Numbered from the stretch's first letter, positions 894-40,154 are shown. The stretch is 64,000 nucleotides of DNA from a virus (IMGVR_UViG_3300034683_000192:96001-160000); one strand, 5' to 3'. Notes: a model not told the origin generated them from the sequence alone. Translations and numbers: made by a program.

Positions 894-1667
894 TTATTTC
901 AAAAACATCTCGATGAGTCGATGGATATCATCCACAAACCGTGAGTATTGTCGCTTGTACTCGAAGTATTTGGATACTCCGAGTGTAGTGAAGTAATCTC
1001 GATAGAACTGATACTCAATCGAATCTACAGGTATGAGCTTCACAGATCCGTATTTCTGAAGAATGTAGCCGAGTGGAGTACTCGCAGATCTTGGAAAATA
1101 CAGAGCAGTCTGACTTGGTTGAGAGACTTCAAATACACGAACAAGTTCTTCGTCGTGAATTGCACCGTACATGATACCAGCATCCACCTGGATCTTGGAT
1201 AAGTTAGCATCGGTGAGTTGCGATACATCTGTTTCCACCGAAAGATAGTGCAATCGAGCATCATCCACGTGATCGAAAGGCGCAGAGATTGGTAAATTTT
1301 TCAGGAAACTCATCATTGGTTCGTGCACTGGGTGAATACGGCATGTATTTCCAGTGATCGAAACTCTGATGGTATCATTGAGTTTGTGTGTGTTTTGAGA
1401 TTCTCGATATGTGAGTGCTTGAAGATTTCGAAGATCTTCAGGAATACCACGAAGAGTAATGTGCATGTTACCGTATGCAGAGCATCTATCTTGAGGAACA
1501 AATCCAGTACATGCTTCTTCGATGCGTAGTTCACTGAATTGTTCCAAAAGTTTCGCCAACTCCACGAAGTCATCGTCGATCTTCTTGAGGCTAGGATTAG
1601 TACACACGATATTTGCACATTCGCCATCTCTTGAATAATGCCCGCAGGTTGCGCATCTGTAAATCAT
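894..1667 (-). CDS. Hypothetical protein with N-terminal Cys cluster (CATC...C...C)
   Basis: Start reassigned to ATG at 1667 (GGAGG RBS; MIYRCATCGH), which removes the overlap with purZ. Confidence 0.65.
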   Translation of the reverse strand: MIYRCATCGHYSRDGECANIVCTNPSLKKIDDDFVELAKLLEQFSELRIEEACTGFVPQDRCSAYGNMHITLRGIPEDLRNLQALTYRESQNTHKLNDTIRVSITGNTCRIHPVHEPMMSFLKNLPISAPFDHVDDARLHYLSVETDVSQLTDANLSKIQVDAGIMYGAIHDEELVRVFEVSQPSQTALYFPRSASTPLGYILQKYGSVKLIPVDSIEYQFYRDYFTTLGVSKYFEYKRQYSRFVDDIHRLIEMFLK

Positions 1668-1760
1668 GATGTTCCTCCGTTGTAAAATTTGTACTCGTAC
1701 ATGATGGTAATGATCCATCATATTTAACATCGAGTAACTACGATATACATGGAGGGAATC

Positions 1761-2993
1761 ATGTTTGAAAATTTTGTCAAGCCTGGAAAAATCAATATGG
1801 TGATCGATGGTGCATTTGGTAGCACTGGTAAAGGTGCGGTTGCTGCACGTATTGCCATGGACACAGATATCATCCATCTTGCGTGCAGTACCACATCCCC
1901 CAATGCAGGACATACGTTCTATTGGAATAATACCAAATACATCACGCATCTCATTCCGGCTGCTGCGATCATCCATGACAGATGTGGAATTTACATGTCC
2001 GCAGACTCAGTCATCGACTACGATCTACTCATGAAAGAAATGGACGAATTTAACATAGACGATGGTCGATTGTTCATCCATCCTCGTGCATGTGTAATCA
2101 CTGATGAAGATAAAGAAATCGAAGCTCGTCATGGTGGAATCGAAACGATCGCATCCACACAGTCTGGAGTAGGATCTGCTCGTGCGAGAAAGATCTTGAG
2201 AACAGGGCTTCTTGCTGAGAATGATCCAAGACTTAAGGACTATGTCAAGAAATACGACATTCGTCGAGACTTCGGAGAAATCGAAGACTGTAAAGTACTC
2301 GTCGAAACAGGACAAGGTCTAGGTCTCGACATCAATCATGGATATAGCTATCCGTATTGTACATCAAGATCTGTACTTCCAGCAAAGGTTCTTGAGGAAC
2401 TCGCACTACATCCCAAGTATTGTGGGAACATTATGCTCTGTTTTCGGACATTTCCTATCAGAGTGGGCAATCCCACAAGAGACGGAAAAGAAGTAGGATT
2501 CTCTGGTCCTTTCTGGGACGATTCAGTAGAAACATCCTTCGAAGAAATCGGAGTAGATAAAGAACTCACCACCGTCACAAAACGGGTGCGACGTGTTGCT
2601 ACGTTCTCAGTAAAGCAATACGAAGACGCAATTTACACGATTGAACCAACGCACGTAATCATTACGTTCATGAATTACCTCGAAGAGATGGAAGATTTCC
2701 CTATACTTAAGAGAGCCCCAGACTACATCAACGTAGGTCCTTACCCTGATGATATTTGTGCATTTCCTGGGTGGTGCAACGAGATTCCTATCGTTATGAC
2801 CAACAAGAGATTTCAGAAAAGATTGGCGGTACTTCAAGAATGGATTGATGAAGCATATGCCATCAATTCCGCAGTACTTACAAAAACTATGACCATCACT
2901 GATGACGGATACACGGAATTGAAAGAATTGCTCAGAATGCTTATCCAGCGTAAGAGCGATTTGAACTATATGTATCGACATACAAACAAATGA
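1761..2993 (+). CDS. purZ: PurZ-like adenylosuccinate-synthetase family enzyme (putative 2-aminodeoxyadenylosuccinate synthetase, Z-base pathway) with C-terminal extension
   Basis: PurA-fold motifs GAFGSTGKG, PNAGHT, GIETIASTQSGVG, VETGQG, YPYCTSR, RTFPIRVGN, TTVTKRVRR. Ser replaces the catalytic Asp (PurA GDEGKG), and TFMNY replaces TKLD. GGAGG RBS precedes the ATG at 1761. Confidence 0.85.
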   Translation: MFENFVKPGKINMVIDGAFGSTGKGAVAARIAMDTDIIHLACSTTSPNAGHTFYWNNTKYITHLIPAAAIIHDRCGIYMSADSVIDYDLLMKEMDEFNIDDGRLFIHPRACVITDEDKEIEARHGGIETIASTQSGVGSARARKILRTGLLAENDPRLKDYVKKYDIRRDFGEIEDCKVLVETGQGLGLDINHGYSYPYCTSRSVLPAKVLEELALHPKYCGNIMLCFRTFPIRVGNPTRDGKEVGFSGPFWDDSVETSFEEIGVDKELTTVTKRVRRVATFSVKQYEDAIYTIEPTHVIITFMNYLEEMEDFPILKRAPDYINVGPYPDDICAFPGWCNEIPIVMTNKRFQKRLAVLQEWIDEAYAINSAVLTKTMTITDDGYTELKELLRMLIQRKSDLNYMYRHTNK

Positions 2994-3018: not shown

Positions 3019-3048
3019 GAGAGGGAGAGCCCTAGGGCTCTCCCTCTC
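3019..3048. terminator. Perfect 30-bp palindrome / bidirectional terminator
   Basis: GAGAGGGAGAGCCCT|AGGGCTCTCCCTCTC, between convergent purZ and 3069-3908. Confidence 0.75.
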
Positions 3049-3068: not shown

Positions 3069-3908
3069 CTAGAACTCCGGAGTCTCATACTCGAGCTCGA
3101 TTTCCGGGCCGAGTTTATCCACGTAGTGTTCGATGCTGGACGCCGTAGCAACGAATGCTTTCACCATTCCTTGAACATCGACGCCTTCGGCATCCATGGT
3201 GTACGGTACATTGTACATGGTCAGTTCGATGTCGATTTCGACGCCCTCACTCATTCCTTCACCGAAATTGGCGGTCGTGATTTCGATCTCGGACCGACCG
3301 AGAGGAACCAGGATCGTTGAGTCGATCCGCAGAAGAGCGATATTTATCTTTCCGCTCAACCCCAGATCAACCGAAGGCGCACCGTACTGTGGACCAAACT
3401 CGACCGATGTGGTGGTGGAGTTCAGTACCAGGAGCATCGATGTGAGAATTTCATCGAAGTCCATCTTTTCCCAGTTTTCGCTGGGGAATTCCGCAGACGT
3501 ATGCGAAAACGGTATCTGGAGGGTATACGACATTGCGATGTGTACCGTATCTTCACAGTACACCTCAGGATGATGCATCCTGTCGCGGTCGGCTCCGGAA
3601 TTCTTGGGAAGCCCGTTCTCATCGATGGTCATCTGAGGATGCTTCCAAATGGACGTATCCAATTCTTCTCTGGGAATGATCATGATCCTGGGTGCGATGA
3701 ATGCACCCCGGATGGCGTTGCCGATCTGGAAATACTTTTTGTCGAGGTACCCCAGAATTTGCATCATGGCAGCGAACTTTGTGAACTCACTGCCATAAAT
3801 TTTCAGAGCATTGTACCGATGCCCCGTGACGTCGGATACGACGAAGTTGTACCAGTTGTCGTTGTTCGCCGCAACCATTTGCTGAAAGTTGGACCTGATG
3901 ATTTCCAT
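3069..3908 (-). CDS. Hypothetical protein, probably abundant/early
   Basis: 279-aa ORF with GC3-rich codon usage like the chimallin gene; preceded by a TATATTAC motif. Confidence 0.8.
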   Translation of the reverse strand: MEIIRSNFQQMVAANNDNWYNFVVSDVTGHRYNALKIYGSEFTKFAAMMQILGYLDKKYFQIGNAIRGAFIAPRIMIIPREELDTSIWKHPQMTIDENGLPKNSGADRDRMHHPEVYCEDTVHIAMSYTLQIPFSHTSAEFPSENWEKMDFDEILTSMLLVLNSTTTSVEFGPQYGAPSVDLGLSGKINIALLRIDSTILVPLGRSEIEITTANFGEGMSEGVEIDIELTMYNVPYTMDAEGVDVQGMVKAFVATASSIEHYVDKLGPEIELEYETPEF

Positions 3909-4101: not shown

Positions 4102-4191
4102 TGGCGGAAGGAGAGGGATTCGAACCCCCGGTAGGTTTCCCTACGTCGGTTTTCAAAACCGATGCAATTAGCCAGACTCTACCATCCTTCC
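4102..4191 (-). tRNA. tRNA-Ser(UGA)
   Basis: GGAAGGA/TCCTTCC acceptor stem, TCGGT-TTTGAAA-ACCGA anticodon arm, long variable arm, GGTTCGAATCC, encoded CCA. Confidence 0.95.
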
Positions 4192-4202
4192 GTAAATTGC
4201 AT

Positions 4203-4586
4203 CTATTCGGGAGTGCGGAATCCGAGCTTGGAGAATCTCCGCAGATTGTTAATAATCCGCGTTACACCCGCGAGAAGTTCATGAATCAGTCGGACCTTGA
4301 AGACGTCAGCATCAGTAGGAGACGCTGCATATCTGATACGATCTGTGAACTGAAACCCATCGGTGCTTCTCCACAGAACACAACTAAAATCCGTCGTGTC
4401 CATGGTCAGTTCAACCCATACGGTCTGATCAGAGCTGATGGATACATCGAGCTGAAACCAATCCAGAGGATCATTGATATCGTGAATGTTCGCGCAGATC
4501 TCTTCGACGACAGTCTTCGCGATTGTGAACTGTTCTTCGCATGTGAGTTCCCGATGTCGTCCAACACTAGCGATGCTTGCGCACAT
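4203..4586 (-). CDS. Hypothetical protein within the RNA gene cluster
   Basis: 127-aa ORF with AGGAG RBS, filling the gap between tmRNA and tRNA-Ser. Confidence 0.65.
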   Translation of the reverse strand: MCASIASVGRHRELTCEEQFTIAKTVVEEICANIHDINDPLDWFQLDVSISSDQTVWVELTMDTTDFSCVLWRSTDGFQFTDRIRYAASPTDADVFKVRLIHELLAGVTRIINNLRRFSKLGFRTPE

Positions 4587-4614
4587 ATATCTTAATCTCC
4601 TGAAGTTGTAAAGT

Positions 4615-5010
4615 TGGTGGAGCCGGTGGGAATCGAACCCACGTCTTGAACTGGAATCAGAATTGCATCTACGTGTGTATCCTCAGTGTTTTCTGACCCG
4701 AGGCTTGGTCGCTCCTATTTTTCAAAGGTGGGGTACGGAGAACTCCTACCACCTAGGGTTGACAATTTAAATGCGATCACCACTCGCATCGATCCAGATA
4801 AGTTTCGCACTTCTTCTTTATCTGACGTCCAGAGAAGTACGTGCTCCTCTAGGGAGCAGTGGCTCTAGGCGGCGTTCGCGTAAGCGAAGTCGTCACGAGC
4901 GGGAGCAGCAAGAGCGTTGGCAGTTGCTTTCGTTGGGCTTTTTAACGCGGCCAGCCCACCGCGACACGCAGCAGTATCCTATCCAACTCAATCGAAACCA
5001 GGGCGGCCCC
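4615..5010 (-). ncRNA. ssrA: tmRNA (tag ANALAAPARDDFAYANAA*, 4865-4921)
   Basis: 5' GGGGCCG...GGTTTCGA and 3' GGGTTCGATTCCCACCGGCTCCACCA. G3.U wobble alanine acceptor; no anticodon arm; internal tag ORF starts after AACT at GCC AAC and ends in AA-stop; 396 nt. Confidence 0.93.
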
Positions 5011-5019
5011 ACTTTAATT

Positions 5020-5095
5020 TGGCGCGCTCGAGAAGGGTCGAACTTCTGACCAAGAGTTTAGAAGACTCCTGCTCTATCCACTGAGCTACGAGCGC
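5020..5095 (-). tRNA. tRNA-Arg(UCU)
   Basis: GCGCTCG acceptor stem, GGAGT-CTTCTAA-ACTCT anticodon arm, CCA end, 76 nt. Confidence 0.93.
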
Positions 5096-5110
5096 ATGAA
5101 TTGTAAAATT

Positions 5111-5186
5111 TGGTCGGAACGACTGGATTTGAACCAGCGACCCCTGCTCCCAAAGCAGGTGCGCTGCCAGGCTGATCTACGTTCCG
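5111..5186 (-). tRNA. tRNA-Pro(UGG)
   Basis: CGGAACG acceptor stem, CCTGC-TTTGGGA-GCAGG anticodon arm, GGTTCAAATCC, CCA end. Confidence 0.95.
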
Positions 5187-5203
5187 ATAAGGAGAAAGAA
5201 ATT

Positions 5204-5278
5204 TGGAGCGGGGTACGGGATTTGAACCCGCAACAGCTGGGGCGGAGACCCAGTATTCTACCTTTGAATTAACCCCGC
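5204..5278 (-). tRNA. tRNA-Gly(UCC) with non-canonical anticodon loop
   Basis: GCGGGGT/ACCCCGC acceptor, U73 discriminator, CCA end. Anticodon arm CTGGG-TCTCCGC-CCCAG has C33, G37 and C38. Confidence 0.85.
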
Positions 5279-5281
5279 ATC

Positions 5282-5825
5282 TCACATACACTCGCGTTTC
5301 TTGGTAGGAAGACCAAGAAAATTGGCCCATTTACGAACCGCGTTATCACTAACGCCATATTTCTCACCAACTTTCGTCACTGGCATTTGTGAAAGGTCTC
5401 TTCCTAGTTGATCAGCGTCCGGTCGATTCACCTTTCGTGACGACATCTGTGCACACGAGTATGAACAAAATTTTTTCTGTCCTATATCTAGAGATTTTCC
5501 ACACTCCAGACAATGTTTATTCCGTAATGCTTCTTTCGCTACATGTATGGGATTTGGAAGTATTACTCGGGTATCCATCCATTTATGTAATTTTGCATGC
5601 TGGGAGTTACGAAGAATCAGTAAATTTCTTGGGTCGTTGTTACTTTTATTGCAATCAAGATGATGAACTACTTCGTCACTTCGCAATCCTTCAGGAACTG
5701 TGGAATCCGCTACTAGAATGTGTTCGTATACATATCCCTTATAACTTCCAGATCTGATTGCTCTAGGATGCTCTGGAGCATAACACTAATACATATCCTG
5801 AATCTTTTATTATCCGTTTATTCAC
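5282..5825 (-). pseudogene. HNH homing endonuclease with a +1 frameshift near 5783
   Basis: GAGGAG RBS and GTG at 5825 give MNKRIIKDSGYVLV. One extra T then shifts to YAPEHPRA...GYVYEHILV...EVVHHLDCNKSNNDPRNLL (HNH core), followed by a Zn-finger and HTH tail. Confidence 0.8.
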
Positions 5826-5846
5826 CAAATCTTCTCCTCAAATAGT

Positions 5847-6035
5847 AAAAATACGTACTCACCCAAAGACGAACCAATCCACCGGTCATTGTCCTTAGGT
5901 GAGTACGGGTTTCCTCCACGGAGGACGATTCAATCACGGAGCCTATGTGACTGAACCAAGTTGAAGTTTACGTAGCTGGATTGCTCCTGCCCCTCAACCC
6001 TGGGATAACCACTTCCCAGTTAGACTATGATGAAT
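5847..6035 (-). ncRNA. Candidate structured ncRNA / leader (five hairpins, unidentified)
   Basis: Non-coding stretch with consecutive stems: CTGGGA/TCCCAG, GTTGAG...TTCAAC with an internal GGA-GCAA-TCC, TTCAGTCAC/GTGATTGAA, CCTCC/GGAGG, and CGTACTCACC/GGTGAGTACG followed by TATTTTT. A TATACTAC promoter-like motif lies at 6042-6049. Confidence 0.45.
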
Positions 6036-11087: not shown

Positions 11088-14000
11088 TTATGCCAGAGAT
11101 TGTGGGAACTTGTACCCCTGTTCAGCAAAAGCCCGGACGAGTGCTTCTGCATACTGGGGACGGTAAGCATTCAACTTATCAAACACCACTGGGGTGATGT
11201 CAAGAAGTGCTTTTACCGTACTGATCCCGAGAGGCCGCAGAGCTGAGAGAACAGCGGCCTGACAACCACGAGAGGTACCATCTTTCTGCATGGTCTTTAC
11301 CTTGATATTGCACAAGGCAAAGAACTTCGCGAGGGTTCCATCGGGATTGGTTTCGTAGTACTTTTGAATGTGAGTCCATCCATCAGATTCGGAGTTGATC
11401 TCGATGTTAGACAGAGGGTTATCTGCCTTTTCCGCTTCCTGCAGTTCTTCGACCGCATTAGCAATAGCGTCGAGATCGACATCACTTGCAGTAGTAACCA
11501 CTTCAGGTTCTTGTTCCTTTGTGGATACATCCTCCGCAATGATGTGCGGTTCCTGAATCTTTTTGCTTTCAACGAATTTCTTCAGGAGATTGCGGATCTC
11601 AAAGAATCCATTCGTCGTTTCTTCTGGAATGAAGATTTCCATGAAACTGAGCATGCAGGACAGGAACCAGATTTTCACCGGGTAGTCCTTGATGGTCTGC
11701 ACGCAACGGGTGAACCACTCACCAGTCGTCACCGAGAATTCCGTACAACCACGTGCATTCGCTTCGAAAAGCGCAATCGCACAGAGCAGGTACTTCTCGT
11801 ATGCCGAGTATTCCCTATTACCGAAGTATTCGGGAACTCTGGTGGATATTTCAGGCCACACCGCATCGATGAGACCCACGAGTTTGCCAGCAGAAATGGA
11901 ACCATCGAGTTTCTCGAATTCTTCCATTGTGACAATATCGTAGAATGCCATCAGCGATGTACCAGTCTGAGAGACCGTCGATCGCTTCCCTGCGATGTGA
12001 AGATACATGAGGTAGTCGAGCTGCGGGAAGTAGTGACGGACACATCTGAGAGACACGTATCTGTATACTTCCGGATCATCGAACTTCCTACCGATCGAAC
12101 GTTTGAGGTCTTCGAGATCTCTGGCGATCGATGGGTACTGGATACTGAACTGAGTTATGGCAATCCCGATTCCTGAGAACCTCACAGGAGTAGGATTAAG
12201 CTTGACGCCCTTTTCAGCGAGACCAGTCAAGAAGGTTTCTTCCATTCCAGGAGTCGTCAGGGCTGGCTGAAGTTTCCGATCTTCTTCTTTGATGGAGACT
12301 CGTTCCGATTCGACCACTTCCCGAATGTCCTTCGGAAGGACTTGCGCATCGGGAAAAGTGTACTCGCGGATAAGCGTACCATCGTCATCAGTTCCCATGG
12401 TCAGATTTTCTTGTCCTTCCATGGGTTCAGGAATTTCGTCCTGATTGAGATCGCCAGAATAGTGCTCCTGTGTACCTGGATAATTCCGGCCAAGCGGTTC
12501 CCACGTGTATGTGGTTTCTGTCGTTGGAATTTCGACTTCCATTGTACTGGCAGCTTCTTCCTTGGACTCTTCTACCGATTCAGGAAGTCCCACTTCCGAC
12601 GATTTCGATAGGTGAGCCATGAGCTTGTTCTTTTGTGCATCCCACCAGTCGAGAATGAATTCAGCTTCGATCTGTTCGAATGCTTCATCAATCCACGTCT
12701 TCACCCAGTAGAACGTCTCATCATCAGAATGTTGACGTACCAGCTTCGCGATCAGACAGAACATCGCGATGAAGTACTTCTCATCCGGAGAGGTTTTACG
12801 AGTGTCGTCATGGAAGAACTCATGCATCTTGTCGCTCCCGAAATAGTGGGAGTTGGACATATCACGGAATACCGTGTGAACGAGCTTTGCGTACGTCTGA
12901 CCAAGGAATCCTTCATCAAGACTATGCCCTTCCTCGTGGAGGTACGTCATGATGTCGAATACCAAGAGTCGCAGATCCCCGAAAGAGGTCCCAGAGTAGA
13001 GAAGCAGCGCGATATAATCAAGATCACTCCGTTCGAAGTTTTCCGACTTATCACGAATGATTCCGTACATGATCGAGAGATCTGCTTTGAGTACGAAATT
13101 CGCGCGATGGAGCGCCGTGTATGCTGAAGGGATCTGCTTTACTGCGCGAGTCATCCGATCACGCTCTTCTGCGTATTCTCCTCGCGTACCGAGATAGATC
13201 TCGAAGTTCGGATCACTTCCTCTGAGCATGACGGAATTGTAACTACCGAGAACATAATCGTCCACGATGTGATGGAACCACCACCGGCAACCGGTTACCC
13301 AGAGACTGCAGGTCGAGCATTCGGGGATTGACGATATGCACGACTTCAGCCATGCGGTAACCTTCTGATGATACCCACTGAGCGCAGGATCGTTCGAATT
13401 CGAAGCTGCTTCCACCATGAGGTGGATCATCGCGAGCATGAACCGATGCTTGTGCGTGGTTTTCGAAAAAGATGTCAGCCTATCTGCCGGATTCGGTCCG
13501 ACCAGATCGACGTAGATTCCGAGATGACGGTAGAGCTCTTCCTGTCTGATGACGAACTGCGTGGTTGCGTTGTCAAACAAGTAACTGAAGAATTCTTCGG
13601 TAATCGTGAGATCATCGAGGAATTTCATGGTACGAGTAACGAGCCGAATGTACTCTACTTTTTCCTGAGGAGGATTGTATTTCCATGCGTATATGAGATA
13701 TCCGATTTCCCGCAGGTGATGATTCGGGGGATAGAATCCGATATCTCTGTGCATTTCACGCACATCGAACACGGTAGAGTTCACGAAATCCGCGAGATCG
13801 AGATATCCCTTACTCCGGAATCGTTCGATCGCATCTTCGCGGTAGCTTTCCCGCCGAGCTTCAATTTCTTCTTTGCTCGGGTCAGTCGACAGCACGTCCG
13901 ATGCGGGAAGAATTTCTTCTGGAGCGAGATCTGCTACCAGAGTAGCGCCAGTGTGGATGATGGGAATGATGAAGGTTTCCACCACATTTCTTCGCTCTCT

Positions 14001-15956
14001 GATTTTTCCCATCTGGAATTCGAGGATCATTTCGATAATGGCATCGAGAATGGTATCCTCCGAAACATCCGTACTGAGAGTACCTTCGGCTTCCGCTTTT
14101 TCGAGATCTTCTAGTTCCGCCAGGAATAGATCAGTGAACACTCGTTTGTCCGTACTGTGATAGTCGAACGCACGAGCGCTTGCTGGATATTTGTCGATCT
14201 TCAGCAGAGCAGTCATGATCTGCGCCCACAGATATCTCCGTTTATTCGTGGATGAGACGACGGAGTTGACCTTACTAACGTTGTACAGGTATTCAGTCAC
14301 ATCCTCCGTGATGAACTGCTGACAACAAATCAGACTTTCCAGCGAAATGCCTATCTCCCCGATTTCGATGATATTCGATGACGGATCATTGAAGAAACCG
14401 ATAAGTCGGTCGAAGTCCTCGCTCGTGTTGTCTTTTCCGTCAATAAGGTCACGTACCGTACGACTGAACACGCGTACTTTCGTATTCATGTCAATCGTAC
14501 ACGAGATTGCGATGATGTACGCACGAAGGACCACAGGCAGAATTTTGGAATCCCAGATCTCTTCGTGTAGTGACAACGACATAAGACCTGGAGCGATGTA
14601 CAGATTCGGAATATTCCATTTCTCACCGATATCGACTTTGCGAGTCTCAAGAAGATACTGTTCAGTCCTCCTGATTTCATCGATGAGTTCTTTCACTGTA
14701 CCACAGGACAGCATCCGCCCGAAGCAGCGCTCGATCCTCGCCTTGTCGTAGTCAGTGTCCTCTACGAAATGTTCACCAAAGAAATGCGATTCGAGTGTCT
14801 TCACTGTCGCGAATTTTGTGGAATCATTCCTTCCCCAGACAGTAGAAATGGCGTATATCCACCAAGTCACGATTGGGATCTGCTGGATATTTCCATACCC
14901 GAATTTCGGGATTGTCTTCAGTTCGAGAGGCCGATCTTTCGGAAGAAATTCGTTCAGCTCCTCGATATTGTGGCAGATGATCCGGTGCATTTCTACGAGC
15001 CGATCGACCAGCAGGCTACCACCGAGCTCACGATACTTGTCGTAGAAGTTGTGACCAAGATCGAAAAACTCATTTGTGAGCCACTGTTGATTGCGTATAC
15101 CGAGTCTTCCGGTATTGTATTCAAGGTATGCGCATATCACGAAAAATGCAATAACGTCAAGAATACCTGAATCGTCGATCTTCAGGAATTCTGCAAGTTT
15201 TGCATTTTCTTGACGATTGGTCAGCATCAGTTTCTTCATTTCTTCGGTGACGAATCCGAAACTGACCAAATCATCGTACACCTGAGATGTGGTATCGGGA
15301 GTCGTGGTTTCCGTAAGCACTTCTTCCGCTTTCTTGATGAGACGAAGTACTTTGCGCGGCTTGTTCGCATCGCTCATCGCACTTTTCAGAGATTCGCCTG
15401 CAGAAAAGATCAATTGTCCTGCCGAAGGAGTCTCTTCCTTGGAAATCGGTTCAGATGATCCAGTCAACTCTTTACGGAGTTTGGCATCCGTTTCGGTTCT
15501 GATCGTGCAGATGAGATCCAGAAGATCGTCACGAGTATCGGTAGCCATACTCTTGGCGATTCTGAATCCCACAGATTCTTCAGGGAACAGTTTCTGGAAG
15601 AGTTGGAAATTCGGATTGAATAGATTCGTCAGACCAGCGAAGATCCACGGATCTGCCGGGATGAATCCAGGTATGATGTTACCGATCATGACCTGATGCA
15701 TGCATCCGTATTTTTCCGAAGGAAAGAATGCGAGACCGCATGCGAATGTACCGACACTGGTATCGTCGATGACGTTGGGCATCAGAGGGCACCAGATGAC
15801 ACTGTTATTAGGCATGATCTCTTTCGGACCCACACCTCTACACAGTTCCTCTGCGATGATCTCGGCACCATATTCCGCCGTACTAAAGAACCTGGACAGC
15901 AGATCTTTTTCGATGAGTTCAAGAACATCGTTGATGCTGAACGTATTTTCACTCAT
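11088..15956 (-). CDS. Very large hypothetical protein (~1620 aa) with degenerate internal helical repeats
   Basis: Long uninterrupted ORF; GGAGGA RBS before ATG at 15956 (MSENTF). No recognised family. Confidence 0.85.
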   Translation of the reverse strand: MSENTFSINDVLELIEKDLLSRFFSTAEYGAEIIAEELCRGVGPKEIMPNNSVIWCPLMPNVIDDTSVGTFACGLAFFPSEKYGCMHQVMIGNIIPGFIPADPWIFAGLTNLFNPNFQLFQKLFPEESVGFRIAKSMATDTRDDLLDLICTIRTETDAKLRKELTGSSEPISKEETPSAGQLIFSAGESLKSAMSDANKPRKVLRLIKKAEEVLTETTTPDTTSQVYDDLVSFGFVTEEMKKLMLTNRQENAKLAEFLKIDDSGILDVIAFFVICAYLEYNTGRLGIRNQQWLTNEFFDLGHNFYDKYRELGGSLLVDRLVEMHRIICHNIEELNEFLPKDRPLELKTIPKFGYGNIQQIPIVTWWIYAISTVWGRNDSTKFATVKTLESHFFGEHFVEDTDYDKARIERCFGRMLSCGTVKELIDEIRRTEQYLLETRKVDIGEKWNIPNLYIAPGLMSLSLHEEIWDSKILPVVLRAYIIAISCTIDMNTKVRVFSRTVRDLIDGKDNTSEDFDRLIGFFNDPSSNIIEIGEIGISLESLICCQQFITEDVTEYLYNVSKVNSVVSSTNKRRYLWAQIMTALLKIDKYPASARAFDYHSTDKRVFTDLFLAELEDLEKAEAEGTLSTDVSEDTILDAIIEMILEFQMGKIRERRNVVETFIIPIIHTGATLVADLAPEEILPASDVLSTDPSKEEIEARRESYREDAIERFRSKGYLDLADFVNSTVFDVREMHRDIGFYPPNHHLREIGYLIYAWKYNPPQEKVEYIRLVTRTMKFLDDLTITEEFFSYLFDNATTQFVIRQEELYRHLGIYVDLVGPNPADRLTSFSKTTHKHRFMLAMIHLMVEAASNSNDPALSGYHQKVTAWLKSCISSIPECSTCSLWVTGCRWWFHHIVDDYVLGSYNSVMLRGSDPNFEIYLGTRGEYAEERDRMTRAVKQIPSAYTALHRANFVLKADLSIMYGIIRDKSENFERSDLDYIALLLYSGTSFGDLRLLVFDIMTYLHEEGHSLDEGFLGQTYAKLVHTVFRDMSNSHYFGSDKMHEFFHDDTRKTSPDEKYFIAMFCLIAKLVRQHSDDETFYWVKTWIDEAFEQIEAEFILDWWDAQKNKLMAHLSKSSEVGLPESVEESKEEAASTMEVEIPTTETTYTWEPLGRNYPGTQEHYSGDLNQDEIPEPMEGQENLTMGTDDDGTLIREYTFPDAQVLPKDIREVVESERVSIKEEDRKLQPALTTPGMEETFLTGLAEKGVKLNPTPVRFSGIGIAITQFSIQYPSIARDLEDLKRSIGRKFDDPEVYRYVSLRCVRHYFPQLDYLMYLHIAGKRSTVSQTGTSLMAFYDIVTMEEFEKLDGSISAGKLVGLIDAVWPEISTRVPEYFGNREYSAYEKYLLCAIALFEANARGCTEFSVTTGEWFTRCVQTIKDYPVKIWFLSCMLSFMEIFIPEETTNGFFEIRNLLKKFVESKKIQEPHIIAEDVSTKEQEPEVVTTASDVDLDAIANAVEELQEAEKADNPLSNIEINSESDGWTHIQKYYETNPDGTLAKFFALCNIKVKTMQKDGTSRGCQAAVLSALRPLGISTVKALLDITPVVFDKLNAYRPQYAEALVRAFAEQGYKFPQSLA

Positions 15957-16041
15957 GGGTTTCCATCCTCCACAGATGTAGTTGAGCTTAGTGTATACGT
16001 ATGTCGTGATGATGTCATTCCTGACATGCACACGAATCTTC

Positions 16042-16335
16042 TCACCGGTCGTCGTCAGATTCGATGCAGTAACTGTCTTCTTCTTCACGCTCGCAGACGA
16101 TGTACCCTGATCCTTCAAGTACACCAATCATCGCTTCGTAATTCAGAATCCCATCAGCATCTTCTGAATCGTAGGTGATGATGAGTACTGACGTAGATCC
16201 CGAAGTGGTTTCACCTGAGTCATCATCAGTGCTACCAGGAAATACGTAAGTATCTTCGACGCCATCTTTGGTCACAAAGATGACAATCGGATAAGTCTGT
16301 TCAATTTTTTCCTGAAACAAAAGCATATCGAACAT
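16042..16335 (-). CDS. Small acidic hypothetical protein
   Basis: 97-aa ORF with AGGAG RBS. Confidence 0.6.
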   Translation of the reverse strand: MFDMLLFQEKIEQTYPIVIFVTKDGVEDTYVFPGSTDDDSGETTSGSTSVLIITYDSEDADGILNYEAMIGVLEGSGYIVCEREEEDSYCIESDDDR

Positions 16336-17679: not shown

Positions 17680-20600
17680 CTATTCTTCAGTGTCGATTCC
17701 TGGAATCTTGATCTTGTCGGCGATGCTCTCGTAGGTATTGCGCATGGTCGATTCCTGCGCTTTACCCTTATTCCATCTGGACACTGGAGTATAGAACCCG
17801 ACGACTCTGGAGTAAGTCTCAGCACCACAGCCACATTTCGGGCAAGCATCAACTTTTCCAGGAAGATATCCATGTGATGCACACACAGAATAATCCGGAG
17901 AAATCGTGATGTACGGAATGTGGTAATTCGTGCAAAGCTTCTTGACCAAGTTCTTTACGACATTGTGATCTTTGATCGCTTCACCAAGAAGAACATGAAG
18001 TACTGTACCACCAGTGTAAATGGTCTGCAGACCATCCTGATGTTCAAATACTTCGATGATGTCGTCACTGTAATCGACAGGTACCTGAGTCGAGTTGGTG
18101 TAAAACGGCTCGGCACCGAGAATCTTGGAAGAAGCTGTGATGATGTCAGGATACTTCTTCGAGTTCAGTTTGGCAAGACGATAGCAGACACCTTCAGCTG
18201 GAGTTGCTTCCAGGTTGTAAAGGTATCCTGTTTCCTGCTTGAACTGATCACATTTGTCACGCATGAACCGAAGAACCTTCTCAGCAAATGCTTTGCCTCT
18301 TTCGGTAGTGATCGGTTCACCGAAGAGATTGAGGCATGCTTCATTACCACCGACGAGGCCGATCGTCGAGAAGTGATTGTGGAAGTATTCTCCATGTCTT
18401 GCAAAAGAGTCCTGAAGGTATACCTTCGAGAACGGGTAAAGACCAAGCTTTGTCTGCTGTTCGACGAAAGTCCGCTTGTCTTCGAGAAGTTCCTTCGCGA
18501 TATGCATGTACTTGTCAAGGTATTCGAAGAACTTGGATTCATCGCCCTTGGCAAGATATGCGAACAGCGGAAGGTTCTGAGTAACCACCCCAACGGAACC
18601 AGTCATGGGGTTGGCATTGAAGATACCACCACTTCTCTGACGCAGTTCGTTGTTGTCAAGCTGAAGATGGCAGTTATGCGTGACCATACCACCTTCTTTG
18701 AGCTCGAAGAGATGGTCATCGGATCCGACGGAGATGCAGTACGCGTAAGGTGCGGTTTTCTTCTGCTTCTCGATTTTCGTGATCGGAACCATGATGAACT
18801 CACCATGTACGAATGCACCCTTGGGGAGAGTGGAGAGATCTCTTCCAGTAATGCTGTACGGAACGAAAGCACCCACTTCGAGAGTATCCGCACTATACGT
18901 GCGCATATCTGTAAGCTCATGTTTTCCTTCCGTGTTCTTCTTGAGATACATTCGAGGTTGTTGATGGTTGTTCTCGAATGTAACTCCATCTGGATCATAC
19001 GCTGTCTTTACGGTAACAAATCCGTCAGGAGAAACCGCAACGACCCCAGTGACAGGAATTTCTTTTCCATTCAATCTGACGTAGTAGCCATCACCATTCA
19101 CGTAATGTCCATCAGGATCGCATCTATTTATCAGGTGATGATGAATCGAACTGATATCCATGATCAGCCAATTACCATTCATCTTGATGGAGATCTTCTC
19201 GTCAGGATGAAGCGGACACATGGATCTGATATCTTCAGGATTGAGATCTGAGTTCACGAAGTTCGTGAAATAGGGAGCACCGTATTTTGCTGCAAGCATC
19301 CACAGTGCATCGAGATTTTCGTTATCCCAGTTGAACTCTTTGGTGATGTTGTAGTTCGGAATTGGGAAAGAGAACTGGCGACCGGATGCATCTCCCTTGA
19401 GCATGACTTCACAGAATGCTCGGTTGAACATATCCATTTCTTCCTGAAAATCCCCGTAGGTATCGGAATCATGGAATTGTCCACCATGAATCACAGGTTC
19501 ATTCTTCATGTACGAAGGAACCGTAAGATCCATTGAAACATTCGTGAAGGGGCAATTTCCGGTAATGAAAGGAACACCGTTTTCTGCCTTGCAAATAAAC
19601 GTACCGGTATCAGTAGTCGGGCACCAGACCACCCCATCAAAATCAACGACATCGGACGTCACTGACGCATGTGACTTTTTGTACACAGTCACAGTGTCAG
19701 TACACGACAGCTGACGATTTCTCTTTGATCCGTATCCTGACAGCACGAGTAGAGACTGAATACACTCCGCCATGTAATCATTTTTCTTACCGATACGAAT
19801 ACGACCATTTGGCTCAATGTGCCCATCTGCATGAATCATCGTTTCGAGAAGAATTTCAATCTGTTCCACCGAAGCGTGGTTGATGAAATCCAAGGGAATG
19901 GCTTCTCGGTTTCCGCCAGTGTATTCCAAGATTTTCTTGGCGTAATCTCCCTTCACATCGAACCGATATACTTCATCGCCGTATCCACCACCGCCAGCGG
20001 TATTTGCGTACCAGTCCGCATCCAGACGAATGAGAAGATTTGCGACTTCGTGTGCATATTTTTTCGGTGACTGGTAGATACGAAGTCTGCTGCTGCGAAG
20101 ATCCATATGGCAGTCAGTAAGTGCCCATCCAAGCAGTCGGATTTCGTCGTTGGTCATGTCAACACCACGACGATTTACACGACCGGCAAGAGGGATATCG
20201 ATCGGTGTACGATACTTCTGATAAATATCTCCAGAAGTTTCGATTACGTAACTCGACGAGTTGAATTTACGTCGAATTGTGCGGTGATCGGGTGTGGTAA
20301 GAATATTCAATTTTCTTCCATGGAAATTGATCATCTTTCCACTGTAATCATAAACATTGACTCGCGTCAGTACATCAAGACGAATTTCTCCGGTATCTTT
20401 ATCGAACACGTAGATCGGATCTCCGATTCGAAGTTCGTCATGACTTTTCCACCCTTCTGGAGTAAGACAGGTGTACGTGTCAGGTACGCACTGGAAGCCT
20501 ACTCTGGTCTTAGTCGTCATGTTGTGGAAGAATTGCTGAAGCTTCTGCTTCACTTCTTTATACGTCAGACCATCATAACGAATGAATGGTGCGAGATAGG

Positions 20601-21294
20601 TATCGAAGTTACTGAATGCCTGAGCACCAGCTGCTTCACCTTGCATGGTAAAGAGGAAGTTCCAGCACTGGCCGAGAGCCACATCGAAATGCTTCGCAGG
20701 TCCAGCATCATTGGCGCCTTCGACACCACCGAAACCTACGAGAAGCACCTGCTTGATGTCCCACCCACAGCAGTAGGGAGCAAGCAGATTGAGATCGTGA
20801 ATATGCAAGAAACCATCGACGTGAGCAGCTCTGGCATCAGGAGAATAAATTTCGTTCAGCCAGTAGAGAGACATCGCCTTAGCGGCAACGTAATGATTGA
20901 GTCCCTGCAGGGAATACCCCATATTGGAGTTTTCCTTGATAGACCATTCTTCCTTACCAAGGTATTCCTTGACAAGGTTGATGAGTGCTGAATCGGAAAG
21001 ATTACGTACATCTTCACGATGCTGACGATAGATGATGTACTTTTTTGCTGTACCGTAATGTCGTGCGTACATGAGCGCACGTTCGACGAAATTCTGGATA
21101 TCTTCGATGGTAATGACATTCGACGAATCGAACTCATTCTGTATGTCATACAGAACAAGGTCAGTGATCTTGACTGCGTCCACTGATTCACCAGACGAAG
21201 CAGCTGCTTTCGAAATGGCGATTTCGATCTTCTTACGATCGAACGGTACTGCAGTCTTTCCGTCGCGTTTCATCACAGTCGTCGGCTGAAGCAT
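17680..21294 (-). CDS. nrdD: Anaerobic (class III) ribonucleoside-triphosphate reductase with ATP cone and two inteins
   Basis: N-terminal ATP cone (VMKRDG..VPFDRKKIE), YCCGW, QAFSNFDT, FPIPNYN, RSMC/CHLQLD, YNLEATPAEG, C-terminal Zn site and YSRVVGFY glycyl-radical loop. GGAG RBS at ATG 21294. Confidence 0.95.
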   Translation of the reverse strand: MLQPTTVMKRDGKTAVPFDRKKIEIAISKAAASSGESVDAVKITDLVLYDIQNEFDSSNVITIEDIQNFVERALMYARHYGTAKKYIIYRQHREDVRNLSDSALINLVKEYLGKEEWSIKENSNMGYSLQGLNHYVAAKAMSLYWLNEIYSPDARAAHVDGFLHIHDLNLLAPYCCGWDIKQVLLVGFGGVEGANDAGPAKHFDVALGQCWNFLFTMQGEAAGAQAFSNFDTYLAPFIRYDGLTYKEVKQKLQQFFHNMTTKTRVGFQCVPDTYTCLTPEGWKSHDELRIGDPIYVFDKDTGEIRLDVLTRVNVYDYSGKMINFHGRKLNILTTPDHRTIRRKFNSSSYVIETSGDIYQKYRTPIDIPLAGRVNRRGVDMTNDEIRLLGWALTDCHMDLRSSRLRIYQSPKKYAHEVANLLIRLDADWYANTAGGGGYGDEVYRFDVKGDYAKKILEYTGGNREAIPLDFINHASVEQIEILLETMIHADGHIEPNGRIRIGKKNDYMAECIQSLLVLSGYGSKRNRQLSCTDTVTVYKKSHASVTSDVVDFDGVVWCPTTDTGTFICKAENGVPFITGNCPFTNVSMDLTVPSYMKNEPVIHGGQFHDSDTYGDFQEEMDMFNRAFCEVMLKGDASGRQFSFPIPNYNITKEFNWDNENLDALWMLAAKYGAPYFTNFVNSDLNPEDIRSMCPLHPDEKISIKMNGNWLIMDISSIHHHLINRCDPDGHYVNGDGYYVRLNGKEIPVTGVVAVSPDGFVTVKTAYDPDGVTFENNHQQPRMYLKKNTEGKHELTDMRTYSADTLEVGAFVPYSITGRDLSTLPKGAFVHGEFIMVPITKIEKQKKTAPYAYCISVGSDDHLFELKEGGMVTHNCHLQLDNNELRQRSGGIFNANPMTGSVGVVTQNLPLFAYLAKGDESKFFEYLDKYMHIAKELLEDKRTFVEQQTKLGLYPFSKVYLQDSFARHGEYFHNHFSTIGLVGGNEACLNLFGEPITTERGKAFAEKVLRFMRDKCDQFKQETGYLYNLEATPAEGVCYRLAKLNSKKYPDIITASSKILGAEPFYTNSTQVPVDYSDDIIEVFEHQDGLQTIYTGGTVLHVLLGEAIKDHNVVKNLVKKLCTNYHIPYITISPDYSVCASHGYLPGKVDACPKCGCGAETYSRVVGFYTPVSRWNKGKAQESTMRNTYESIADKIKIPGIDTEE
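18673..19215 (-). mobile_element. Intein 2 in NrdD, mini-intein (~181 aa), apparently Pro-initiated
   Basis: RSMC|PLHPDEKI...AYCISV...HLF...MVTHN|CHLQLD, no endonuclease. Removing P...N restores the RSMCC.L.LD active-site motif. Confidence 0.85.
19555..20490 (-). mobile_element. Intein 1 in NrdD with LAGLIDADG homing endonuclease (312 aa)
   Basis: Begins CVPDTYTCLTPEGW, has TPDHR block B and LAGLIDADG-like LLGWALTDC / LETMIHADG, and ends VWCPTT...ITGN followed by Cys+1. Confidence 0.9.
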
Positions 21295-21416
21295 GAGTAA
21301 GTCTCCATGAATGTTGGTATGGGAGATAAGTGGCAGATGGAACATAGCATACCTTGTTAAGTAGGAAGATAAAATCGAAGTCAGAACAAAAAAGAAATTG
21401 ACCCATTTTAAGGAGA

Positions 21417-23282: not shown

Positions 23283-24557
23283 TTAATGTCGCATATTGAG
23301 ATCGTCGATCAGTGAATCAATACAGTAAATATCTCTTCGTGTTTGATCACATACCGACGGATCCAGATAATTGTTCTCAGTGTAATACTTGTGACCAAGC
23401 ATATCCGGAGTGGGTACATCCGATGCAAACTGTTTGAATACGAATGACCGAAGTGAGAAGTATGACTTCTTCAGATCTTCTGGGTAAATAGTTCGTCCTT
23501 TGTCATAGCTCATCGAGATCAGAGTTTCGACAAAGTATCTATTGTTCAAATGCCCAGGACCCATAATAGCACTCCAGCCACTGGCGAATGCCATGTTCAT
23601 TGGATACTTTCGAGCAATATCTTTACATGCATCCTCCGCTATACCTGATCCAGTCAAACGGTACAACGTCGCAGCATTGAAGAAGTTACTGTGCGCTGTA
23701 AACCAAGATACAAGATACACTCGTCCAAGAAAGATCGAAAGATCTCCTGGACTAGTGATGAGTAGCGGGAAGTAACATACCAGAAGTACTCGGTAGAACC
23801 AAAGGTATTTCTTTTCCCATGTGATTTCATATCCTAGTCTGAACCATGTAAGAAGTCGAATTACATCTGGTCCAAGTCCAAACCAACGATAGAGATACCC
23901 CCGATCATCGTCAGCTTTGACTCTACCTAATTCACATGCAGCGTTTCCGAAATGAAGGAGATGTCCTTTGTTTCCATGTCTATCGGTACGACGAAATGTA
24001 GTCTGTTCGAAAAGATTGACTAGCTTCGCCAGATCGGATTTGGTTAGTTCTACAGAAGGATGATCGTTACGTATCACTTCTGTGAGCCATGCCATTAGAC
24101 CAACAACCATATCACCAGAGAAATTCACAGTAGTGTATCTATCTGGATGATTGTTTGGATATCTGCCGATATATCCATCATCACCTACATACGACAGAAG
24201 TAGTCTGTGTAGTCGATATATGTAGTTTTCTATATCTGGTGGGACAATCTTGGATGTACCTAATGCGCCCATCTTCTTTTGTGTCGAAAAATATCGAATA
24301 AGTGACGATGCGTAAAGTCCGAGCCACTTAAACGAATCTCCATCGTCAGTCAGTTTGAGAAAATCGTAGTTATAGATCCTGTGATTGAATTCTGAATTCT
24401 TCTGGAGTTTAAATCCATACGTTTTAGCTGAACGCATCAGCGAATAAGTGATGGATGGAAACCACAGACACCGACTCACGACAGATATCACTACCTTCAC
24501 AGGTTGAAGCAAAATGATATCTATCATGAAGAACAGAATGAGTAATACGTAATTCAT
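23283..24557 (-). CDS. Hypothetical protein
   Basis: 424-aa ORF with hydrophobic N-terminus. Confidence 0.75.
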   Translation of the reverse strand: MNYVLLILFFMIDIILLQPVKVVISVVSRCLWFPSITYSLMRSAKTYGFKLQKNSEFNHRIYNYDFLKLTDDGDSFKWLGLYASSLIRYFSTQKKMGALGTSKIVPPDIENYIYRLHRLLLSYVGDDGYIGRYPNNHPDRYTTVNFSGDMVVGLMAWLTEVIRNDHPSVELTKSDLAKLVNLFEQTTFRRTDRHGNKGHLLHFGNAACELGRVKADDDRGYLYRWFGLGPDVIRLLTWFRLGYEITWEKKYLWFYRVLLVCYFPLLITSPGDLSIFLGRVYLVSWFTAHSNFFNAATLYRLTGSGIAEDACKDIARKYPMNMAFASGWSAIMGPGHLNNRYFVETLISMSYDKGRTIYPEDLKKSYFSLRSFVFKQFASDVPTPDMLGHKYYTENNYLDPSVCDQTRRDIYCIDSLIDDLNMRH

Positions 24558-24576: not shown

Positions 24577-25122
24577 TTAGTCGGATATGCGGACCGCCCC
24601 CGGCCTCATAGGATCGATGTAGTAAATTCGAACATTTTTTCGTTCAGCGTACTGAAGACATGCGTATGTTCCTCCAGTATTCTTACCATCGATGTGTACT
24701 GCAATTACGAAGGATGAATTATTTACCATCCACGCATTACGTGCGTGCATTTTCCATGCTGCATATGGATCAGGATTTACGTCAACTATGTCATCAGCAG
24801 CTTCACACAACTGATGAAATTTTTTCTGAATATGTGGAGGCCACTTGATGTGCTGTGAAGGAAATGGTCGAGCAATGATCGACTTGATATCAGAAAAAGT
24901 TTCACGTATATCGTGTACTTCTTCTGCTGCCCACTGATCCACACCCAATGCTCCACCAGTAATGAAGGTTCTGATGTTGTAGGTATGGTACATGGTAAGG
25001 ATAGCAGTTCTCAAAAGTTCTTTGATGTTGAACTCAACGTCTCGTTCAGTGAAACCGAGCTCCTGAAGAGCAGCTGGGCGATGTCCAGTAAAACAGACTG
25101 AGTATTCTGGGTCAATATGCAT
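24577..25122 (-). CDS. SLOG superfamily protein (YspA/DUF1273-like)
   Basis: VCFTGHRP, FITGGALGVDQWAAE, RNAWMVNNS...GGT..CL.YA. Confidence 0.85.
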   Translation of the reverse strand: MHIDPEYSVCFTGHRPAALQELGFTERDVEFNIKELLRTAILTMYHTYNIRTFITGGALGVDQWAAEEVHDIRETFSDIKSIIARPFPSQHIKWPPHIQKKFHQLCEAADDIVDVNPDPYAAWKMHARNAWMVNNSSFVIAVHIDGKNTGGTYACLQYAERKNVRIYYIDPMRPGAVRISD

Positions 25123-25125
25123 CTC

Positions 25126-25593
25126 TTACTCCAAGAGGTAAACATGGTTACAGGCATCTTTCAAATGCCTGATAATTTCTCGTCTAACTACATTCCAATC
25201 CAATCCACCATATCCACACCCTAGCTTGGGAATGGCGATAGAATGTATCTCTCTAGATACTATTTCTTCTCTGAGAGCTATTAAACCTTTGGTTATGTAG
25301 GACACATCAGAAGGATCTTTCCAATGAAGTTTCGTTGGAAAGTTAATGATAAAATTCGGAGTTTGTTTAGTAGAAGTAATGAACACATACATAATTCCAG
25401 GACGTAAGGTATTATTCATGCAGGCCTTAGCATATTCACGAAACATCTCAGGATATTTCAATCGAAATTGTCTAGCTAATCCGGCGCCCATTACTCCGAC
25501 ACAATTTACGGGATTGACAATTGCGTCGGTTTTCATGGTAAAGATATCTTGAGAAATTAAGCTATGGAACATGGTTTGCCTCCGACATGACAT
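25126..25593 (-). CDS. Macrodomain ADP-ribosylglycohydrolase (DarG/Poa1-like)
   Basis: DAIVNPVNCVGVMGAGLA.QF..KYP, IINFPTK.HW, SIAIPKLGCGYGGLDW. Confidence 0.9.
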   Translation of the reverse strand: MSCRRQTMFHSLISQDIFTMKTDAIVNPVNCVGVMGAGLARQFRLKYPEMFREYAKACMNNTLRPGIMYVFITSTKQTPNFIINFPTKLHWKDPSDVSYITKGLIALREEIVSREIHSIAIPKLGCGYGGLDWNVVRREIIRHLKDACNHVYLLE

Positions 25594-25607
25594 AGGGATA
25601 CATTGTA

Positions 25608-25637
25608 AGAGGGGACATCCTTTCGGATGTCCCCTCT
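25608..25637. terminator. Hairpin
   Basis: AGAGGGGACATCC-tttc-GGATGTCCCCTCT. Confidence 0.65.
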
Positions 25638-25646
25638 ACGATTCTA

Positions 25647-26699: not shown

Positions 26700-26775
26700 G
26701 AATATTCTCCGGTGGATTTAGTTAATGGACATAGTATTCCTGAAAGGAGATCCCTATGGGATCTCCTCTGTGCCG

Positions 26776-34990: not shown

Positions 34991-35044
34991 TTTTAAACAT
35001 CTCCTGAGTTTGCAGATTATTGAATGAGGCAAGGATGCAAACAA

Positions 35045-35052
35045 GTAATATA
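35045..35052 (-). promoter_or_regulatory. TATATTAC promoter motif upstream of RNAP beta
   Basis: Exact motif. Confidence 0.6.
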
Positions 35053-35087
35053 TACCCACACCTCTTTTGGGAATCTAGGAGTTCGTT

Positions 35088-40136: not shown

Positions 40137-40154
40137 GCAGAAGGCCTCCGTGGG

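Follow-up and report, generated by a model that had tools for sequence, protein, structure and literature searches.

Until now, genomes carrying 2-aminoadenine (Z) have been linked to small sipho- and podoviruses with a compact purZ-datZ-mazZ-dpoZ cluster, and nucleus-forming phages are thought to protect ordinary DNA by means of a protein shell. Here we describe a gene for a PurZ-type enzyme (purZ) on a 64,000-nucleotide stretch of viral DNA, hereafter the window, which comprises positions 96,001 to 160,000 of a single linear 199,880-bp IMG/VR record (IMGVR_UViG_3300034683_000192; G000 below) that CheckV estimates to be ~73% complete. The same window encodes a phiKZ-type multisubunit RNA polymerase (RNAP) and a protein with a predicted chimallin fold. 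The three features occur together in at least five genomes (G000, G006, G007, G011, and G016), and the combination of PurZ and chimallin is thus not a one-off.

The closest described enzymes are the PurZ proteins of cyanophage S-2L (PDB 7ODX), Vibrio phage phiVC8 (6FM1), and Salmonella phage PMBT28, which share with the query the GSTGKG motif, the TTVT aspartate loop, the Val-loop insertion, and the F/N/Y ATP-type pocket. The query is only 32 to 35% identical to these proteins, scores below the NCBIfam cutoff, and differs from them in a 75-aa C-terminal extension and in Thr302; its gene has no DatZ, MazZ/DUF550, or DpoZ nearby or anywhere in the 199,880-bp record, and the genomes of that group measure 38 to 68 kb, compared to ~200 kb or more here. 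PurZ0 of the Gordonia phages Archimedes (7VF6) and Ghobes is likewise a PurA-derived phage enzyme for Z synthesis with Ser in place of the catalytic Asp, and PurZ0 phages, like the phage described here, are without DatZ, using other dATP/dGTP hydrolases, DutZ and DUF5664, instead. However, PurZ0 reads GSEAKG where the query reads GSTGKG, retains Asp in its GTP motif (..ADQ rather than ..MNY), and forms a separate clade. The short archaeal-type PurA (Pyrococcus horikoshii, 5K7X/2D7U) has the same short architecture and supplies the second-best NCBIfam model, but its catalytic Asp is intact and its substrate is IMP, whereas the query has PurZ-specific substitutions. Among phages, the Chimalliviridae (phiKZ, 201phi2-1, Goslar, and PhiPA3) have in common with this genome a chimallin-fold protein, split RNAP beta genes, and a chimallin gene beside an RNAP gene; in contrast to them, the chimallin here resembles no known one at the level of sequence, no Pfam tubulin (PhuZ) match was obtained, and a PurZ is present, none having appeared in deposited phiKZ-like phages in our PurZ searches.

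The initial annotation of the window had described the known PurZ phages as small, and the deposited records bear this out: 83 records have a PurZ match at an E value of ≤1e-15, and all 45 of those listed are ≤68 kb, with none above 35% identity. Full-text literature searches returned no paper linking PurZ or adenylosuccinate with chimallin, papers pairing PurZ or aminoadenine with "jumbo" were off topic as judged by title, and a 2026 census of PurZ and PurZ0 in NCBI viral sequences, which defines seven groups, makes no mention of "jumbo."

Active site and phylogenetic placement of the enzyme

The gene and its probable ribosome-binding sequence lie as follows:

1761–2993, plus strand: purZ, encoding a 410-aa PurA-superfamily enzyme of the succino-amino-deoxyadenylate synthase type (by models, PDB matches, residues, and trees)
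1751–1756, plus strand: Shine-Dalgarno-like GGAGGG, 4 nt before ATG 1761 (by sequence reading)

In the list of open reading frames (ORFs), the purZ frame is open from 1749 or 1761 to 2993 (414 or 410 codons). The ATG at 1761 is the better start, because GGAGGG lies upstream of it and the nearest orthologue, also of 410 aa, shares the N terminus and length.

Three PurZ-type changes in a PurA-fold enzyme had been proposed at exact coordinates, and these are correct to the nucleotide: Ser21 (AGC, 1821–1823) stands in GAFGSTGKG, TTVTKRVRR occupies residues 270 to 278 (2568–2594), and TFMN occupies residues 302 to 305 (2664–2675). An alignment with Escherichia coli PurA agrees, pairing GDEGKG with GSTGKG, such that the catalytic Asp13 of PurA becomes Ser; GATTGRRRR with TTVTKRVRR, such that both Gly positions are changed, to Thr and Lys; and TKLD with TFMN. 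Ser in place of the catalytic Asp of the P-loop has been used as a criterion for PurZ (PMC12884076), and it is found in 120 of the 120 nearest metagenomic homologues.

Family models and structural databases rank PurZ first. Pfam assigns the protein only to the PurA superfamily (PF00709), but the best NCBIfam model is PurZ (NF038379, 215.2 bits), ahead of archaeal PurA (PRK04293, 164 bits) and bacterial PurA (114 bits), and the PHROGs match is phrog_1211, the PurZ family. The two best PDB matches are the PurZ structures of S-2L (7ODX, E = 1.4e-38) and phiVC8 (6FM1, E = 9e-36), with Archimedes PurZ0 (7VF6, E = 5e-26), Pyrococcus PurA (E = 5e-25), and E. coli PurA (E = 2e-10) below them.

The S-2L PurZ structure paper lists the residues that touch dGMP, aspartate, and (d)ATP (PMC8342488), and we mapped these onto the query by alignment. 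Conserved contacts comprise F19-G20-S21, N48-A49-G50-H51-T52, S132-T133, R147, Q185, Y199-C200-T201, R234-V235, the TTVT of residues 270 to 273, R277-R278, F303, N305, Y306, and G326-P327; the sole departure is T302. The feature that excludes a 2'-OH is present, with V235 following the PIR motif and a PurZ-type loop insertion at residues 236 to 247, an insertion that in the known enzyme presses Val against C2' such that it would clash with a 2'-OH (PMC8342488). An ATP/dATP-type base pocket is also present (T302-F303-M304-N305-Y306), with Phe and Asn at the sites of Lys and Asp in TKLD and a Tyr after them, in which F303 and Y306 match the phiVC8 PurZ markers F295 and Y298 (10.1101/2025.10.22.683976). 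The C-terminal extension (residues ~335 to 410) is confined to the query and its closest relative and has no match in Pfam or the Atlas.

In a careful maximum-likelihood tree built from 29 sequences, with two canonical PurAs as the root, the query fell in a clade with the PurZ proteins of S-2L, phiVC8, PMBT28, and Ochrobactrum phage OH with support of 100/100, and larger quick trees agree with this placement. PurZ0 formed a separate clade (100/99), and an approximately unbiased (AU) test rejected a grouping of the query with PurZ0 (P = 0.0006). Both the phylogeny and the active-site columns therefore uphold the original assignment to PurZ rather than PurA. The PurZs of the five chimallin-bearing phages and four from other large phages form a single clade (94/90) nested among small-phage PurZs, which suggests that purZ may have been acquired once and then spread among large phages. 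Taken together, the gene likely encodes a catalytically competent PurZ, as predicted from its residues, and the enzyme is probably in use, because it has been kept with its active-site residues intact although other proteins of these genomes are only 30 to 70% identical.

Several other lineages were recovered alongside this clade. Five large PurZ phages from IMG/VR (G009, G010, G013, G014, and G015; 83 to 161 kb) have PurZs that cluster with those of the chimallin phages, and they gave no match to the chimallin family, the phiKZ RNAP, or DatZ. PurA homologues with a Ser P-loop of the form GSEGKG make up a clade found in Mycobacterium, Microbacterium, Hydrogenophaga, Sphingomonas, and Dehalococcoidia assemblies (L023–L035), which branches below PurZ0 and PurZ. 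Genes of the PurZ clade also lie on 0.6- to 1.0-Mb contigs of Bdellovibrionales and Micavibrio-like metagenome-assembled genomes (MAGs) (L015, L016, and L019); the chimallin-family profile had no match in five MAGs holding PurZ-like genes.

Phage context and relatives

The features of the window that bear on the type of phage are the following:

32846–35059, minus strand: split phiKZ-type RNAP beta-family subunit (phrog_3295, E = 6e-131)
30867–32867, minus strand: split phiKZ-type RNAP beta-family subunit (phrog_3015, E = 5e-81)
53675–55198, minus strand: split phiKZ-type RNAP beta-family subunit (phrog_2987, E = 3e-73), adjoining the chimallin gene
55317–56966, minus strand: 549-aa protein of predicted chimallin fold, a candidate phage-nucleus shell protein
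17680–21345, minus strand: class III (anaerobic) ribonucleotide reductase NrdD (phrog_487, E = 1e-85), whose position relative to purZ is kept in relatives

A phiKZ-type multisubunit RNAP had been reported in the window, and its three beta-family genes were recovered by PHROGs; in a tblastn search, the one at 32846–35059 matched 307 phiKZ-like jumbo phage records (including 201phi2-1) at 26 to 29% identity.

The accompanying claim of a chimallin stands by predicted fold and fails by sequence similarity. The 55317–56966 protein had no match in Pfam, PHROGs, a PDB phmmer search, or a PDB profile search made with 79 homologues, nor by tblastn against 50,697 phage records, and a word-indexed homologue search returned the protein alone; an exhaustive HMMER scan delimited a family of 330 representatives. 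AlphaFold was of no use on the single sequence (mean predicted local distance difference test score [pLDDT], 36.5), but AF2 with the 79-homologue alignment gave a pLDDT of 85.7 and a predicted template modeling (pTM) score of 0.81. The top nine Foldseek matches of this model are all chimallin/PhuN structures (Goslar, 201phi2-1, and PhiPA3; E = 4e-14 to 2e-12, the next being 9e-3), and VIA-align superimposes it on solved chimallins with Z scores of 23 to 26 over 412 to 458 residues, compared to 8 for the next fold, a GNAT-type domain. The phage is thus predicted to encode a very divergent chimallin-fold protein, and on the strength of this model it may form a phage nucleus. Two other ORFs were considered as chimallin candidates, and nothing was found. 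The tubulin profile PF00091 matched nothing in the five genomes, PhuZ being a divergent tubulin; one report describes PhuZ as dispensable in some nucleus-forming phages (PMC11724907).

IMG/VR holds 366 relatives of this PurZ. Of 11 larger PurZ records tested, four matched the chimallin family as well as the phiKZ RNAP beta subunit, and a search of IMG/VR with the RNAP alignment gave G006 only. The four relatives are as follows:

G006: 221 kb, direct terminal repeats, 100% complete, PurZ 64% identical to the query
G007: 254 kb, linear, 93% complete, PurZ 53% identical to the query
G011: 287 kb, inverted terminal repeats, 100% complete, PurZ 42% identical to the query
G016: 149 kb, linear, 54% complete, PurZ 40% identical to the query

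G000 and G006 are collinear over their full length, with purZ in the same position and relative orientation near nrdD. The link between this purZ and nrdD recurs in a third assembly (L004), both purZ junctions are crossed by contigs from other samples, digester and sludge among them, and the GC content is even across the region. Chimerism between purZ and the chimallin block, which the initial annotation had named as grounds for abandoning its proposal, is excluded by the collinearity with G006 and by the bridged junctions. PurZ recurs in this phage lineage and is inherited within it. The purZ stretch was detected in sequencing runs from 13 studies of subsurface, anaerobic digester, wastewater, and sludge habitats, none of these runs being listed as RNA. 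In G007, the chimallin-family gene (39,519–41,083) was matched in two adjacent frames, which may reflect a frameshift or an assembly error.

Surroundings of purZ

Two further features flank the gene:

3020–3047, no strand: palindromic hairpin with a perfect 13-bp stem, between the convergent purZ and a 279-aa gene (3069–3908)
894–1669, minus strand: divergent neighbor gene with no assigned function (ORF list)

The hairpin may be terminator-like; a consensus terminator scan missed it because a T-run is absent. The divergent minus-strand ORF is listed as 894–1976, but sequence reading places its likely start at ATG 1669, with GGAGG upstream, and it therefore does not overlap purZ; no Pfam match was found for it. 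A 691-bp stretch (1018–1708) that covers most of this neighbor and part of the region upstream of purZ is deleted in contigs from two other samples, one of them an anaerobic digester, in which 1017 is joined to 1709. The deletion puts beside purZ a gene for a Gly-rich protein of ~330 aa with GGxGG-type repeats, which occupies 27–845 on the plus strand, runs upstream of the window, and has no Pfam match. The sequence TATATTAC occurs seven times in the window, always on the minus strand, compared to 1.1 copies expected, and in the whole-window motif count none lies upstream of the plus-strand purZ.

Just downstream, on the minus strand at 4102–5278, is a cluster of tRNA genes (Ser-TGA, Arg-TCT, Pro-TGG, and Gly-TCC) with a 396-nt transfer-messenger RNA (tmRNA) gene whose tag peptide is ANALAAPARDDFAYANAA; very high contig depth over this cluster in other samples probably derives from host-like tRNA sequences. 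It is followed by an HNH endonuclease gene (PF13392; 5282–5686, minus strand) that is missing from contigs of two other samples, in which 5278 is joined to 5853; variants without 5279–5852 were found among contigs of other samples, and the HNH gene looks like a mobile insertion. Farther along the minus strand are a 1,679-aa ORF (11088–16127) with no PHROG or Pfam match and a YpsA/SLOG-family gene side by side with a Macro-domain gene (24577–25593). Upstream of purZ in the record lie genes for a dUTPase, 2.4 kb away, and a dTMP kinase, up to 3.5 kb away, both scoring above the cutoffs of canonical equivalog models. The dUTPase was considered as a candidate DutZ and rejected: it passes the canonical dUTP diphosphatase equivalog (117 versus 103 bits), in contrast to the situation in PurZ0 phages with DutZ; it shares just 30% identity with Ghobes gp55; and it is absent from the four relatives. 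Neither it nor the dTMP kinase is common to the relatives, and the two were not counted as genes of the Z pathway.

Helper genes and competing explanations

In the account that we prefer, PurZ would join dGMP and aspartate, with ATP or dATP as the phosphate donor, to form N6-succino-2-amino-2'-deoxyadenylate, whose conversion to dZTP would fall to PurB, guanylate kinase, and nucleoside-diphosphate kinase of the host; a divergent, family-B-like polymerase encoded by the phage itself would then build 2-aminoadenine into its DNA. The carrier would be an uncultured phiKZ-like phage of anaerobic, wastewater, or subsurface habitats with a chimallin-fold shell protein. Because the genome lacks both a DatZ-type dATPase and a Z-selective PolA, and because its homologue of DUF5664 seems to have decayed, A would probably be replaced in part rather than completely. 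A restriction-based study of viromes grouped 28 of its 29 enzymes from dZ-modified contigs with PurZ (10.1101/2025.10.22.683976), and it is for this reason, together with the retention of DUF5664 by two relatives, that Z in the DNA of this phage is favored; its presence there, perhaps only in part, is plausible. PurZ-driven incorporation of Z, probably partial, is what we judge rather probable from these comparisons.

The helper genes are where this account meets most resistance. The initial annotation had called for a search of the rest of the genome for DatZ, MazZ, and DUF550, and none was found in G000, which has no match to MazG, HD, DUF550, YfbR-like/DatZ, DUF5664, or NDT and none to PolA or PurB; nor do the complete relatives G006 and G011 carry DatZ, HD, DUF550, PolA, or PurB. 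A homologue of the DUF5664 proteins does lie just past the window in G000 (160,918–161,730), but without the KY..W, RH, and H.AH motifs. G000 has no counterpart of the 26- to 68-kb region of G006, where the ends of the G000 contig fall. In the enzyme itself, the NF038379 score of 215 bits is below the curated cutoff of 300, and residue 302, an adenine contact, is Thr where S-2L and >90% of relatives have Asn. All of these points weigh against Z synthesis as we propose it.

Further searches gave the same picture. With the DatZ, MazZ, and DpoZ of phiVC8 and the Ochrobactrum phage as queries, tblastn found nothing in G000; DatZ (PF12917) and HD (PF01966) are absent from G000 and its four relatives, and PolA (PF00476) and PurB are without a match in all five genomes. 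Among 50 PurZ-bearing IMG/VR records, DatZ was found in 33, comprising 33 of the 40 smaller records and 0 of the 10 large ones; since the same method finds DatZ in 33 records, the contrast is real and not a failure of sensitivity. The family-B polymerase that had also been singled out for scrutiny was recovered as a match at ~25–27 kb (25,087–27,228 of G000), but only a weak one, and this is the only polymerase signal in G000. The polymerase of S-2L is described as nonselective, such that exclusion of A in that phage depends on DatZ (PMC8342488).

Genes that could stand in for the missing helpers occur in some relatives. Proteins with a DUF5664 domain above the Pfam cutoff are encoded by G006 and G007, and this family converts dATP and dGTP to their monophosphates in Z-phages, with a tenfold preference for dATP (PMC12884076); by analogy, such an enzyme would both supply PurZ and reduce dATP. 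The 160,918–161,730 protein of G000 aligns with the syntenic proteins of G006 and G007 although it has no Pfam match, and it could represent a dATP/dGTP diphosphohydrolase that has decayed or been put to another use. G006 also carries a MazG-family gene, inserted between the homologues of the G000 neighbors 23283–24557 and 24577–25122. This MazG gene, which adjoins the SLOG homologue, was considered as a MazZ; it has no BLAST similarity to the MazZ of S-2L or OH, and we claim no specificity for it.

Two explanations would dispense with Z synthesis from a PurZ or with its jumbo phage setting altogether. The protein might be an ordinary adenylosuccinate synthetase, PurA, acting as an auxiliary metabolic gene for AMP; its Pfam family is indeed PF00709, and canonical PurA occurs on some large phage-database contigs, for example a 282-kb "Staphylococcus phage" record. 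But with Ser for the catalytic Asp, with TKLD replaced, with PurA models scoring far below the PurZ model, and with a position far from PurA in the tree (100/100), this explanation is effectively refuted by sequence and we consider it very improbable. Still more remote is an assembly artifact fusing the purZ of a small Z-phage to a jumbo contig: the source is metagenomic, and purZ is among the few plus-strand genes and sits in a region variable for insertions and deletions, but the independently assembled, terminally repeated 221-kb G006 has the same gene order and purZ position, and the L004 link to nrdD, the contigs crossing both junctions, and the even GC content tell against it as well, such that the probability left to it is negligible and the idea is already refuted. 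Alternatively, the enzyme might have shifted to a different substrate or product, such as a ribonucleotide or a different amino acid, and no longer initiate Z synthesis. Such a shift would fit the score below the curated PurZ cutoff, the unique C-terminal extension without a match, the Thr rather than Asn at 302, and the lack of helper genes; it is at odds with a dGMP pocket, a loop insertion at Val235, and a TTVT aspartate loop that are all conserved, and the site matching residue 302 is Asn in the nearest relative. We regard such drift as improbable.

The remaining alternatives concern the extent to which Z would reach the packaged DNA. An active PurZ might mainly reshape nucleotide pools, either draining dGMP and dATP or producing dZTP to the detriment of host replication or as a countermeasure to a defense, with little or no Z in packaged DNA and the shell as the main protection. 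The want of DatZ, a Z-selective PolA, and PurB in the five genomes, the DatZ contrast between large and smaller PurZ records, and the dATPase action of S-2L PurZ (PMC8342488) are all in keeping with a pool role. This role, which we place second after incorporation of Z, is nevertheless rather unlikely in our view, given that membership in the PurZ clade coincided with dZ modification of the contig in 28 of 29 cases, that relatives keep a DUF5664 domain that would feed PurZ and remove dATP, and that the gene is kept in relatives whose PurZs are only 40 to 64% identical to the query. At the other extreme, a nucleus-forming jumbo lineage might replicate a largely or fully Z-substituted genome by means of a family-B-type polymerase, without DatZ or DpoZ, such that base substitution and the shell would be two layers of protection, the second layer serving, for example, stages at which the DNA is outside the shell. 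That possibility deserves attention but we doubt it; full substitution is less likely than the initial annotation had implied, because DatZ, MazZ/DUF550, DpoZ, and PurB are absent from G000 and from the complete relatives.

A conserved PurZ without its canonical helpers in at least five chimallin-bearing genomes leaves two readings: Z-DNA may extend to a class of phages that is much larger and differs in mechanism, or PurZ may have a further role in warfare over nucleotide pools. If the Z-DNA reading is true, there would have to be new ways to exclude dATP and a Z-accepting polymerase of a new type. The finding would bear on whether the protection afforded by a phage nucleus is sufficient by itself, on the design of phage therapy, and on enzymes for the production of Z-DNA.

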